From Escherichia coli O127:H6 str. E2348/69 (GTDB taxonomy: Bacteria > Pseudomonadota > Gammaproteobacteria > Enterobacterales > Enterobacteriaceae), in the NCBI RefSeq assembly GCF_000026545.1, contig NC_011601.1: DNA of 64,000 nt. One strand, given 5' to 3'. Within the stretch, counting starts at the first letter, position 1. Every line of letters starts with the position of its first letter. The position numbers are program-made. Shown one piece after another: positions 60,501 to 63,500 of this stretch.

Positions 60501-63500
60501 TAACTCCGTCATCCTGGGCGAGGAATTCAGCGTGGCGAATCGCTTTGTCGCTCAATTCCATTTCGAAAACATCCACTGGCATGATGATTGTTTTGTACAT
60601 AAGCATTCTCTCCTTGTTTTTGCATGTATACATAACAGCACATTATTGGTTATGAATCTATGATTTGCGAGGCTGATTTGATCTGAATTTGCTATTGAGC
60701 TGGAAAATAAATAAAACCAGGCGCTACCAGCGTTGTTCAAGGTATAGCACTGCAGCAACAATAATTGCGGCTATGAATATATAAAATGCAGTGATACCGA
60801 GAGCTTCGCTCATATGAGTCCGCAGATGAATAACCAGTTCAGATTAGAATGCTGCGCTTAAGAGCAAAATGATAAATCTGGTTGATATTTGAGCGGAAAG
60901 AGGATGCGAGTGCATCCTCTGGGCAAAGCGAGTTATCGCTTGTGCAGATGGGATTAAAGCAGGTAGTCGCCAGCAGCTTCTGGCTGGTATTCGAGTTCCA
61001 GCACTTCAAGGTGGGTTGCAACGCCGCCCGGAAGTTCCCAGTGAATGGAATCGCCAACGCGCAGCCCCAGCAGTGCGGCACCTACCGGAGCCATAACGGA
61101 AAGCTGAGTATTGCTGTCGGTCATTTTTGCCGGATACACCAGCGTGCGCACACGCACTTCGCCATCGCTAAGATTGCGGAATTTAACCCGGCTGTTCATT
61201 GTCACCACGTCGTGTGGCATCTCTTCTGGCGAACACATTTGGGCGCGATCCAACTCTGCGTTTAACGCGTCGGCGATTGGCAAACCAGCATAGGCGGGTT
61301 GCTCCAGCAGAATATCGATGCGTTCGGCATCCAGGTCGTTAATGATGATAGTTGGTCTGGACATTTTTACTCCATGTCGTCGGTACTGCGAGTGTCGCAG
61401 ATAAACATACCCAAAAGAAAACCCTCACCGTCAGGCGGCGAGGGTTTAACTCACATGATGATACTGGCTGTTGCTCACTCTTTGAAGTGATTTGCGTCAC
61501 ATTCAGGGAATTCCTCAATGTAGCGCATTATGTATAAATCTTAATCGTCATGGTTTATGGAAGACGAATTAGCGTGTTTTGTAAATCAGAGGATTAATAA
61601 CCTGCTTTATCAATCACAAAGGTTTTGCCACAGTTGCCTGGGTGTGGTTGTGGCAAGAATGAGTTGGCAGAAAGCGGAGCGTTGATGGCGTCAGCTTTGA
61701 TCGAGATCTGAATTTCAGTTAAATACGCAGGGTTACCCTGGCACGTTAGCTTAACTGCTTTCACGTTCTCTTTTCCCCAGCTTTTGGCAAAGGCGGCATC
61801 AAAGTCACGGCGGCTCACTGTTCTACCGTAGTTATCCGCAAGGAATTTTCCGGCTTCGCTCTCTTTAATTTCTTGATTCAGGCGTACCATCGTGCCGAAG
61901 TATGCGTCTGGATCAAAACCAAAGCAGGCACCGTGTTTGGCATATTCGTAGCGTTCCAGGCAGGAACGTCCGCCAGCTCCTGGCATGACTTCACTTAGTT
62001 TAGCGGCCGTTTCCAGTGATAACCCGGTTTCCGGCGATGAACACATTCGGCTGGCGCGCGCTTCTGGTAGATTCGGGATTGGGCGAGTAGCGCAACCGAA
62101 GCGCATCCAGCGGCGTTCATCAACACCACGGGCAGCAACCGATTTAGGCAATCCTGGCCACAGACCATGTACGGTCAAAAAATCAGCTTTGTTGGTCGTT
62201 TCGGTTTGCAGGCGACATTCATCTCGTTCGTTACGATTTCGATCGTGTTGACTCTGGCAAAATCCGGTTTGCCAGGAGAGGGCCAGGACATAGCGATCAA
62301 AATCGCCATACTGTTTTGCCTGCAACGCCACGGCGTTGGCAGAAGAGAAGGGAAGCAGAGAAACCGCGAGCAACGCGGCGTTACGCCAGAATGCTTTCAT
62401 AATGGGTGTGGAACTCATACATACACTGAATATTATCTATTAAATCATAAAAAAGCCCGCCAGGTGGGCTTACCTGGCGGGCGTGATGATTTATTCAGCG
62501 TTTGGCGAACGTATTAGTTCCACATGGCGAGAATCGGCCAGCCAACCAACAGCAGCATAGAGATGTAAATCACCCCGAAGATTGCGCCAAGACGCCAGTA
62601 ATCTTTTGATTTCACATAGCCACAGCCGTAAATAATCACCCCAGGACCGGTTGCATAAGGCGTCAGACAGCCCATGATACCGATAGACAGCACCAGCAGG
62701 ATACACAGTTGTTCCATTGGTACGCCCGGAATCCCTTTACCGACGGCCAGAATAACCGGCAGCATGGTTGCGGTGTGCGCAGACAGGCTGGCAAACAGGT
62801 AGTGGGCAAAGTAGAACACCAGAACCAGTACAATCACCGTTGCGTTTGGTGAGAAGCCTTCCAGGTGCGTACTCATCGTGTTGGCGAACCAGTCGATAAA
62901 GCCAGAACGGGTCAGGCCATTCGCCATAACAACCAGCGTTGCCAGGTTGACCAGCGTGTTCCATGCGCTGTTATAGCGAGTAATGTCTTTCCACGGCACA
63001 ACGTGCAGCGCCAGCATCAGCGAAACTGCCAGCAGACCTACCGCAGTAGCATTAATGACTTCACTGCCAAATACCCACAAACCTAAGCTGAGCAATACAA
63101 GGCCAATCAGCGTCCACTCTCTGCGCGTCAGCGCACCCATGGTTTTTAGTTCATCACCCGCCCAGGTTGCCACTTCTTCACTGTGTGTGATTTCCGGTTT
63201 GTACAGCACGTAGGAAAGCCACGGCGCAATGATAAGCAAGATAACCCCAACCGGCAGGAAGCAGAGGAACCACTGCAACCAGCTAATCTGGATACCGGCA
63301 ATTTTGCTGACGAACTCCAGACCCAGCACGTTTGGTGCCGCACCGGTGACAAACATGGACGAACTCAGACTGGTACTAATGACCATCATCCACATCAAAT
63401 AGCCGCCAATACGACGCGCGGACGGATCGTTCGGGAATGATTTAAACAGCGGCGGCAGGTTTTTAATGACCGGAAAAACCGTACCCCCGGTACGCGCGGT

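Follow-up and report, generated by a model that had tools for sequence, protein, structure and literature searches.

Several short bitopic peptides are known which bind a histidine kinase within or at the membrane and tune its output, as MgrB and SafA do with PhoQ and MzrA with EnvZ. A described system close to the protein treated here is YoaI (b1788), a single-pass inner-membrane protein of 34 residues which activates EnvZ and is regulated by PhoB and by low Mg2+. Its residue E31 is needed both for the interaction with EnvZ in two-hybrid experiments and for the activation of omrB. C-terminal GFP fusions of YoaI glow at the membrane, and the C-terminus is therefore taken to be cytoplasmic; overexpression of YoaI delays growth independently of EnvZ (Vellappan et al., PMC11429745).

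The second point of comparison is the uspG-rnk interval of E. coli K-12. It contains ybdR (1239 bp, plus strand) and yldA (b4734, product YP_009518757.1), a gene of 29 codons located on the strand of rnk, 3 nt past the stop codon of ybdR. K-12 YldA was seen by chromosomal SPA tagging and immunoblot, and the tagged protein was tolerated at native levels (VanOrsdel et al. 2018, PMC6001520); this detection covers the K-12 allele only. The convergent ybdR transcript overlaps yldA, an arrangement listed as an 'excludon' (PMC12288877).

A 29-codon gene in a short uspG-rnk interval

The window is a stretch of 64,000 nucleotides from E. coli O127:H6 str. E2348/69 (contig NC_011601.1). The original prediction, made from this DNA without database searches, had described uspG and rnk as only about 350 bp apart and without ybdR between them, had stated that ybdR lies there in K-12, and had pointed to a minus-strand ORF of 29 codons running from ATG to TAG at 60813-60724. 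All of this was borne out. The interval measures 353 bp (60601-60953), because uspG occupies 60172-60600 and rnk 60954-61364, both on the minus strand. The ybdR gene, which the K-12 locus shows between the two, is missing, and both the coordinates of the ORF (ATG 60813-60811, TAG 60726-60724) and its translation, MSEALGITAFYIFIAAIIVAAVLYLEQRW, were reproduced. A single transmembrane helix is predicted in MSEALGITAFYIFIAAIIVAAVLYLEQRW at residues ~5-25. The features of the locus are as follows; class A denotes the Escherichia short form and the related Citrobacter loci.

60172-60600, minus strand: uspG, from the annotation; same strand as yldA, downstream flank
60601-60893, no strand: ybdR-less haplotype block; it takes in yldA, the region upstream of yldA and the promoter region of uspG
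60601-60723, minus strand: yldA-to-uspG spacer of 123 nt with the uspG promoter and RBS, conserved with Citrobacter class A loci
60724-60813, minus strand: yldA CDS, 29 codons plus TAG; from the ORF list, translation, RefSeq, NF041476 and conservation
60819-60823, minus strand: weak Shine-Dalgarno-like GCGGA, its GGA at -8 to -6 from the ATG; putative function
60868-60890, minus strand: upstream block AAATATCAACCAGATTTATCATT with a -10-like TATCAT (60874-60869); candidate yldA promoter or operator
60899-60945, minus strand: rnk 3' double hairpin, right edge of the divergent haplotype
60954-61364, minus strand: rnk, from the annotation; same strand as yldA, upstream flank

The ORF is almost certainly yldA. 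RefSeq lists it under WP_001287361.1 as 'small membrane protein YldA'. Against NCBIfam NF041476 (membrane_YldA, an equivalog model) it scores 59 bits (E 3.2e-16), with all 29 residues aligned to the 29 model positions; the curated cut-off is 45 bits. It has the expected position, as a 29-codon ATG ORF on the rnk strand beginning 140 nt past the rnk stop codon, and all residues that are invariant in the family (M1, E3, A21, V22, L25 and E26) are found in MSEALGITAFYIFIAAIIVAAVLYLEQRW. With Pfam PF23689 (YldA-like) the window allele scored 22.9 bits, under the gathering threshold of 27, and K-12 YldA scored 73.6 bits. Evidently this model tilts to the K-12 type of YldA. It also has precomputed matches to the YoaI orthologs of Cedecea and Cronobacter.

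YldA of K-12 and YldA of the window each have 29 residues, are encoded on the rnk strand ~140 nt past the rnk stop codon, pass NF041476, and have in common an N-terminal M-x-E-A and, in the C-terminal half, AAIIVxAVLYLE. Their surroundings differ: K-12 yldA converges on ybdR with a gap of 3 nt, whereas yldA in the window has no ybdR beside it and stands in tandem upstream of uspG. The 29-codon yldA which K-12 itself has adjoining ybdR had been overlooked in the original prediction.

Conservation and coding constraint

A 29-codon ATG ORF is present at the equivalent position in 36 of the 82 loci examined, spread over about ten enterobacterial genera. All 36 share the rnk strand, the ATG and a length of exactly 29 codons; in 34 the distance from the rnk stop codon is 128-146 nt. 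The stop codon differs among loci (TAA, TAG or TGA); the ATG and the length are kept across 36 distinct coding sequences. Column entropy at codon positions 1, 2 and 3 is 19.1, 14.0 and 34.3, pooled pN/pS comes to 0.37 and dN/dS has a median of 0.22. Constraint is tighter in the C-terminal half (0.23 vs 0.51), and the best-conserved stretch, A21-V22-L-Y-L-E26, is common to YoaI. Judged by these substitution patterns, yldA is kept under purifying selection.

One might suppose that the conserved element is in fact non-coding, i.e. part of the rnk 3' UTR, a regulatory RNA of uspG or a DNA site, and that the reading frame is incidental. The gene does have the terminator of rnk on one side and the promoter of uspG on the other, and the blocks upstream of it are conserved. 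However, changes pile up at the third codon positions, the ATG, the length and a stop codon of varying type are kept in all 36 sequences, the RNA of the flanks folds no better than shuffles, and the K-12 product appears on immunoblots (PMC6001520). We regard this explanation as extremely improbable.

Thus yldA is a real and conserved gene, already annotated and named and not new. The suggestion that the ORF may be a genuine small gene finds its answer in the RefSeq entry, the NF041476 match, the purifying selection and the translated K-12 ortholog.

Two haplotypes in E. coli

The short block stands where K-12 has a segment of 1.69 kb with ybdR and the K-12 yldA allele. Outside the yldA coding sequence the two blocks cannot be aligned. 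Divergent sequence runs from the start codon of uspG to ~60893, where identity to K-12 picks up again to reach 100% through almost all of rnk. The divergent tract reaches into uspG as well, where identity to K-12 drops to 78-90% in some 50-nt windows. The two YldA alleles are identical at 15 of 29 residues (52%) and at 54% of nucleotides, with pS saturated (0.80).

Among 5426 complete E. coli genomes, the short form is found in 1816 and the K-12 form, with ybdR and the K-12 allele, in 3600. With yldA present in 5416, it is effectively a core gene of the species, and ybdR is accessory. The short interval occurs at a median of one place per genome and at two at most, and there are no tandem repeats. 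The short form is common to E. albertii and other Escherichia, and its protein clusters with those of E. marmotae, E. albertii and unclassified Escherichia. In other genera ybdR is present in Salmonella, in some Citrobacter and in some Enterobacter loci; it is missing from all eight class A loci, in which the yldA coding sequences of Escherichia and Citrobacter are ~74% identical.

These data bear on the idea, put forward in the original prediction, that the ORF could be a chance frame in a deletion scar, left when ybdR was lost from a K-12-like ancestor. A short interval lacking ybdR is what such a loss would produce. Yet K-12 has its own yldA adjoining ybdR; the K-12 flanks do not align to the short interval; the frame keeps its length of 29 codons in all 36 loci, and changes there are biased to third positions; E. 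albertii and other Escherichia have the short form too; and none of the eight class A loci has ybdR. Both halves of the idea, the chance ORF and the scar, are therefore refuted, and we consider this origin to be virtually out of the question. As judged by alignment, the short form is a separate haplotype and not the K-12 sequence minus ybdR.

Signals around yldA

In related class A loci G(C/T)GGA(A) is found at the Shine-Dalgarno position, and GGGGA in Enterobacter-type loci. The upstream block AAATATCAACCAGATTTATCATT is near-identical in the class A loci of Escherichia and Citrobacter. A strict sigma-70 consensus scan of the interval gave no promoter for yldA, and inspection by hand found no -35 element to go with the -10-like TATCAT. 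A transcription start of yldA is predicted near 60862. Look-alikes of sigma-54, Pho-box, PhoP-box, Fur and IHF sites in the upstream blocks were unconvincing by eye. The region 5' of yldA folded no better than shuffles when structure was looked for.

In Enterobacter and Lelliottia loci a perfect CTTAAT-N5-CTTAAT (a PmrA box) stands 42 nt before the yldA ATG; it is missing from the window. In class II activation the PmrA box lies at about -37 to -21 relative to the transcription start (PMC10570014). With this spacing the position of the box in Enterobacter and Lelliottia is unfit for a class II activator of yldA, and this candidate was rejected.

Downstream of rnk two hairpins follow each other, AAGCGA-taac-TCGCTT and GAGGATGC-actc-GCATCCTC, the latter followed by TTTCC. 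The double hairpin has a fold energy of -24.2 kcal/mol (z = -5.7), and the GAGGATGC/GCATCCTC stem is found after rnk in most loci whether yldA is present or not. It is the probable rnk terminator. After yldA a terminator scan found no intrinsic terminator, and the fold of the spacer has z = +0.3.

The comparison of the single-helix peptide with small membrane proteins or type I toxins, made in the original prediction, held in its first part, since the peptide is YldA, and found no support in its second. Type I toxins such as TisB, Ibs, Ldr and ShoB do resemble YldA in being short, very hydrophobic and built of a single helix, and TisB has 29 amino acids. A toxin of this kind would damage the membrane and be silenced by an antisense RNA. 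The overlap of the K-12 ybdR transcript with yldA (PMC12288877) could be read in this sense, as could the slower growth upon overexpression of the paralog YoaI and the patchy distribution of yldA over genera. But the short haplotype has no ybdR and therefore no convergent antisense transcript. An Rfam search of 60000-61700 at E <= 1 turned up, besides the rnk leader, just a chance snoRNA match, with no antitoxin or sRNA family, and no antisense promoter was predicted on the plus strand of the interval. Unlike type I toxins, yldA is single-copy and strictly syntenic over genera rather than mobile, and in K-12 YldA-SPA builds up from the native locus in growing cells (PMC6001520). We consider a type I toxin very improbable.

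YldA as a paralog of YoaI

With the NCBIfam YoaI model NF041475, YldA scored 30 bits (E 4e-7), under the cut-off of 45; other models gave at most 12 bits. The YldA HMM scored K-12 YoaI with 18.9 bits, a value reached by none of 20000 full shuffles and by four of 20000 segment-preserving shuffles. When alignments of the two families were compared with hhalign, the probability was 97.6% (E 2.9e-12) and the match was ungapped, YldA 1-28 corresponding to YoaI 6-33. Position p of single-pass YldA thus corresponds to p+5 of YoaI, equally single-pass. Neither family shows any variation at E3/E8, V22/V27 or E26/E31. Among the residues reported as invariant in YoaI (S26, V27 and E31; Vellappan et al.), the latter two have invariant equivalents in YldA, V22 and E26, and S26 is replaced by A21.

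YoaI differs from YldA in five additional N-terminal residues (MNDQM), in the serine at the position of A21 and in its locus: yoaI stands between yeaK (tRNA_edit) and yeaL (DUF441) in K-12, Cedecea and Cronobacter, the ORF of the window instead between rnk and uspG. The YoaI orthologs at the yeaK-yeaL locus of Cedecea and Cronobacter end in a YldA-like YLERRW. Furthermore, yldA is dimorphic in E. coli, but YoaI is near-uniform there: 5410 of 5426 genomes have it at >=90% identity. By sequence comparison YldA is clearly a paralog of YoaI and not its ortholog. The YoaI paper makes no mention of this paralogy or of the retained glutamate (PMC11429745).

Possible function

Given the paralogy to YoaI and the conservation of the glutamate which YoaI requires for EnvZ binding, we infer that YldA might be a YoaI-like modulator of a membrane sensor kinase, a proposal we make tentatively. 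By homology to YoaI, YldA would insert into the inner membrane with its N-terminus outside and its short C-terminal tail (E26-Q-R-W) on the cytoplasmic side; the charge distribution does not settle the topology, each terminus being weakly acidic. On the pattern of YoaI, its target would be a larger membrane protein, contacted through the invariant juxtamembrane glutamate E26 (YoaI E31); the most plausible partner is an EnvZ-type sensor histidine kinase. The shared glutamate could, however, serve membrane anchoring or helix capping instead of kinase binding. As yoaI and yldA are both present in nearly all E. coli, the targets of the two proteins may well differ. The general logic would be that of MgrB-PhoQ, MzrA-EnvZ and SafA-PhoQ, but these peptides have no sequence relation to YldA and differ in interaction surfaces and topologies; the analogy is drawn only through YoaI.

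Alternatively, YldA could be a genuine membrane protein that does not act on a kinase but modulates a transporter or an envelope enzyme (cf. AcrZ, KdpF, MgtS and PmrR), or it could have a role tied to rnk or uspG. The targets of small membrane proteins are indeed diverse (reviewed in PMC12648545). The constant position just past rnk, the tandem arrangement of ybdR-less yldA directly upstream of uspG with no terminator detected between them, the N-terminal half of the helix, which is very unlike between the alleles and in comparison with YoaI, and the EnvZ-independent growth delay caused by YoaI (PMC11429745) all fit such a role. It is harder to reconcile with the match of the best-conserved stretch, A21 to E26, to YoaI including the EnvZ-binding residue, with the probable rnk terminator that precedes yldA, and with the many genera which have rnk and uspG and no yldA. 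We give this possibility a nearly even chance.

Taken as a whole, the reading of the ORF as conserved yldA, lying in a ybdR-less short haplotype that did not arise by deletion from the K-12 arrangement and with a YoaI-like mechanism proposed for it, appears likely to us.

Implications

For genome annotation this locus is a routine case, as RefSeq already calls and names yldA. That a small-protein gene is effectively core next to an accessory ybdR may be useful to the small-protein field. The two YldA alleles within E. coli diverge as much as orthologs of different genera do, and results obtained with K-12 may therefore not transfer to strains of the short form. For the uncharacterised YldA, the paralogy to YoaI and the retention of the glutamate which YoaI requires for EnvZ binding offer a concrete and cheap experiment.

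A more far-reaching and rather doubtful interpretation is that YldA is a second connector derived from YoaI, which tunes a two-component kinase (EnvZ or another) through E26 and exists in two diverged versions in E. coli. If this were true, the outer half of the helix and the transcriptional context would set the versions apart: in the K-12 type yldA converges on ybdR, and in the B2 type it precedes the stress gene uspG in tandem. Lineages of the short form, this enteropathogenic strain included, would then wire their kinase input differently from K-12.

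Identity of the small ORF

In the window, citT, rna, rnk, a small ORF and uspG follow each other on the minus strand, and ahpF lies on the plus strand at the left side of this group. The original prediction had described a 29-codon hydrophobic ORF in a short uspG-rnk interval (353 bp). Its coordinates and translation proved accurate.

Gene order around the small ORF
60954-61364, minus strand: rnk
60813-60724, minus strand: small ORF (yldA), ATG, 29 sense codons and TAG; product MSEALGITAFYIFIAAIIVAAVLYLEQRW
60172-60600, minus strand: uspG

Residues 5-25 form an unbroken hydrophobic run, and a weak Shine-Dalgarno-like GCGGA is located at -10 to -6 relative to the ATG. 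RefSeq labels exactly this ORF yldA, "small membrane protein YldA" (WP_001287361.1). Against the NCBIfam equivalog model NF041476, whose cut-off is 45 bits, the product reaches 59 bits; with Pfam PF23689 "YldA-like" it obtains 22.9 bits, slightly below the gathering score of 27.

In K-12, ybdR lies between uspG and rnk, as the original prediction had stated and as the K-12 annotation shows. K-12 also possesses yldA (b4734; 29 codons; product MAEAFYILIGFLIMAAIIVMAVLYLENHS), which is located 3 nt past the ybdR stop and is convergent with ybdR. K-12 YldA is among the 36 new small proteins that VanOrsdel et al. (2018, PMC6001520, Table 1) detected on immunoblots after SPA tagging on the chromosome, and its gene appears with envelope, osmotic and PhoPQ genes in the fluoride-stress-induced gene list of one transcriptome study (PMC10100675). 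The small ORF is a gene already annotated and modelled, the K-12 allele of which has also been detected experimentally.

Conservation and coding constraint

80 rnk loci from species-representative genomes, together with those of K-12 and E2348/69, were screened for YldA, YbdR, UspG and neighbours. yldA was found in 36 of these 82 loci, in genera including Escherichia, Citrobacter, Enterobacter, Lelliottia, Leclercia, Pseudenterobacter, Kosakonia and Phytobacter. It has an ATG start, exactly 29 codons and the orientation of rnk in every one of the 36, and it starts 128-146 nt past the rnk stop save in two loci with insertions. No two of the coding sequences are identical, and the stop codon varies between TAA, TAG and TGA. 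Column entropy, summed per codon position, is 19.1, 14.0 and 34.3; pN/pS is 0.37 when pooled, and dN/dS between pairs has a median of 0.22. Constraint is tighter in codons 16-29 (0.23) than in codons 2-15 (0.51), and M1, E3, A21, V22, L25 and E26 are invariant. The pattern as a whole is the signature of a translated gene, neither a chance ORF nor a non-coding element. The latter is contradicted by the immunoblot evidence as well.

The peptide had also been likened to type I toxins. However, there was no match to a described antitoxin RNA family near the locus and no antisense promoter in the uspG-rnk interval, yldA is single-copy and syntenic, and K-12 YldA is tolerated at native levels. A toxin function thus appears highly improbable, even though an antisense RNA of an undescribed kind may exist.

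Two haplotypes in E. coli

Among 5426 complete E. coli genomes, the short interval (counted at at least 80% coverage) was present in 1816, with 97-100% identity; the remaining genomes match it only over its last 61 nt, adjoining rnk. Of the 5426, 3600 have the K-12 block, in which both ybdR and yldA are present. Together these make 5416 genomes, and thus yldA is essentially core in E. coli (5416/5426) and ybdR accessory. Matches of the short form include E2348/69, Nissle 1917 and NU14, which are phylogroup B2 strains.

The two forms give no alignment from the uspG start codon to about 60893, apart from a weak one across yldA, where 54% of the nucleotides and 15/29 residues are in common and synonymous change has reached saturation (pS 0.80). 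The right edge of the divergent block is sharp and lies directly past the rnk terminator, rnk itself being 100% identical to K-12. At the left edge the divergence runs into uspG, where some 50-nt windows (60250-60350 and 60550-60600) are 78-90% identical to K-12, compared with 98-100% for ahpF and rnk. This suggests that an imported tract, or old recombination mosaics, reach into the uspG coding sequence.

As judged from these alignments, the ybdR difference is a haplotype replacement and not a deletion scar; at least one of the two forms must have entered E. coli by recombination with a diverged lineage. Two readings had been offered for the ORF. The genuine small gene stands, as a conserved coding ORF; the chance ORF in a deletion scar is refuted by the presence of yldA in K-12, the non-alignment of the forms, the conservation and the codon-position pattern.

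A 67-aa protein of the representative library (P0031) consists of residues 1-19 of window-type YldA joined to a translation of the K-12 upstream region and to K-12-type YldA in full length. It is probably a mixed-strain assembly chimera and less likely a recombinant with both yldA alleles.

E. albertii and two other Escherichia species representatives have the short form together with its YldA allele, and the protein cluster also takes in E. marmotae. Outside Escherichia, the nearest relatives of window-type YldA are found in some Citrobacter (69-76% amino-acid identity), whereas K-12-type YldA clusters with other Citrobacter (up to 76%). All 8 loci of the window's allele class are without ybdR. 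Across the family, the interval occurs in four states.

States of the uspG-rnk interval (82 loci)
State 1: yldA with ybdR
State 2: yldA only
State 3: ybdR only, e.g. Salmonella arizonae and diarizonae
State 4: neither; C. freundii complex, Kluyvera, most Kosakonia

The Citrobacter freundii-complex loci (L006-L008, L010, L013, L016, L018, L020, L038) have neither yldA nor ybdR, and the conserved rnk hairpin is missing too. In the majority of these loci uspG and ahpF are about 4-5 kb farther apart, with other genes inserted between them.

The rnk hairpins and the transcription of yldA

Two hairpins lie 3' of rnk (60899-60945; -24.2 kcal/mol, z = -5.7). The second, GAGGATGC-N4-GCATCCTC followed by TTTCC (60899-60920, minus strand), is found after rnk in most loci, with or without yldA downstream, which argues that it is part of rnk, probably its terminator. 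Its stem is near-invariant across many enterobacterial genera (most of loci L003-L082), with a freely variable loop of 4-5 nt. In an ordinary terminator one would expect drift or covariation, so this stem may be recognised by something through its sequence. In Citrobacter amalonaticus AUH_CA_2023_1 (L017, 6445-6630) the hairpin is doubled, with about 140 nt between the copies, and owing to this insertion yldA is 313 nt past rnk; an insertion is found in C. sedlakii (L023) too, with yldA 233 nt past rnk. Upstream of rnk, the Rfam rnk_leader (RF01771; 61410-61518, minus strand; 123 bits) includes a 12-bp terminator-like hairpin (61447-61419).

Hairpin and yldA ATG are usually 83-94 nt apart, one locus with an insertion having 175 nt between them. 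In this stretch, a 23-nt block (60868-60890) with a -10-like TATCAT is near-unchanged between the Escherichia and Citrobacter members of the window's allele class; a consensus promoter scan of the uspG-rnk interval detected none there. Folding of the yldA 5' region, and of the 123-nt spacer to uspG, is no better than that of shuffled sequence, and neither terminator scan nor folding found a terminator after yldA in the window. Given the missing terminator and unstructured spacer, short-form yldA transcripts may run on into uspG. This tandem arrangement differs from K-12, where yldA and ybdR transcripts overlap convergently (PMC12288877).

In Enterobacter/Lelliottia, a perfect direct repeat resembling the PmrA box, CTTAAT-N5-CTTAAT, lies at -42 from the yldA ATG (L026, L031, L035, L041, L044, L046, L051, L055, L057) or at -47 (L040). 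Counting both strands, there are only 2 further matches in the 1.9 Mb of fetched loci, and neither the window nor K-12 has the repeat. Its position does not fit canonical PmrA activation of yldA.

Paralogy with YoaI and possible function

YldA also scores 30 bits on the NCBIfam YoaI model, all other models giving at most 12 bits. The alignment is ungapped, YldA position p corresponding to YoaI position p+5. K-12 YoaI reaches 18.9 bits on the YldA HMM, a score attained by 0/20000 full shuffles and 4/20000 shuffles preserving the polar-hydrophobic-polar layout. Profile-profile comparison gave 97.6% probability (E 2.9e-12). When 1.84 billion representative proteins were searched with a joint profile, only 61 matches were obtained at E <= 0.001, from both families; among them are YoaI orthologs of Cedecea and Cronobacter at the yeaK-yeaL locus, which end in the YldA-like YLERRW. 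yoaI is present and near-uniform in 5410/5426 E. coli genomes and thus occurs together with its paralog yldA. Paralogy of YldA and YoaI is well supported by these comparisons.

YoaI, an inner-membrane peptide with C-in topology, binds EnvZ and activates it, for which the invariant Glu31 in its cytoplasmic tail is needed; YldA is not mentioned in that study (Vellappan et al., PMC11429745). The invariant E26 of YldA corresponds to Glu31 and V22 to V27 of YoaI, and it is precisely the conserved half of YldA that is shared with YoaI. On these grounds YldA could insert N-out/C-in and modulate a membrane sensor kinase via E26, a tentative proposal that we consider possible but doubtful. The chance that YldA instead acts on a different membrane target is close to even.

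The new contributions are modest ones: a clean two-haplotype structure for the uspG-rnk locus in E. coli, the genus-level divergence of its two YldA alleles, and the YldA-YoaI paralogy, which yields a testable functional hypothesis.
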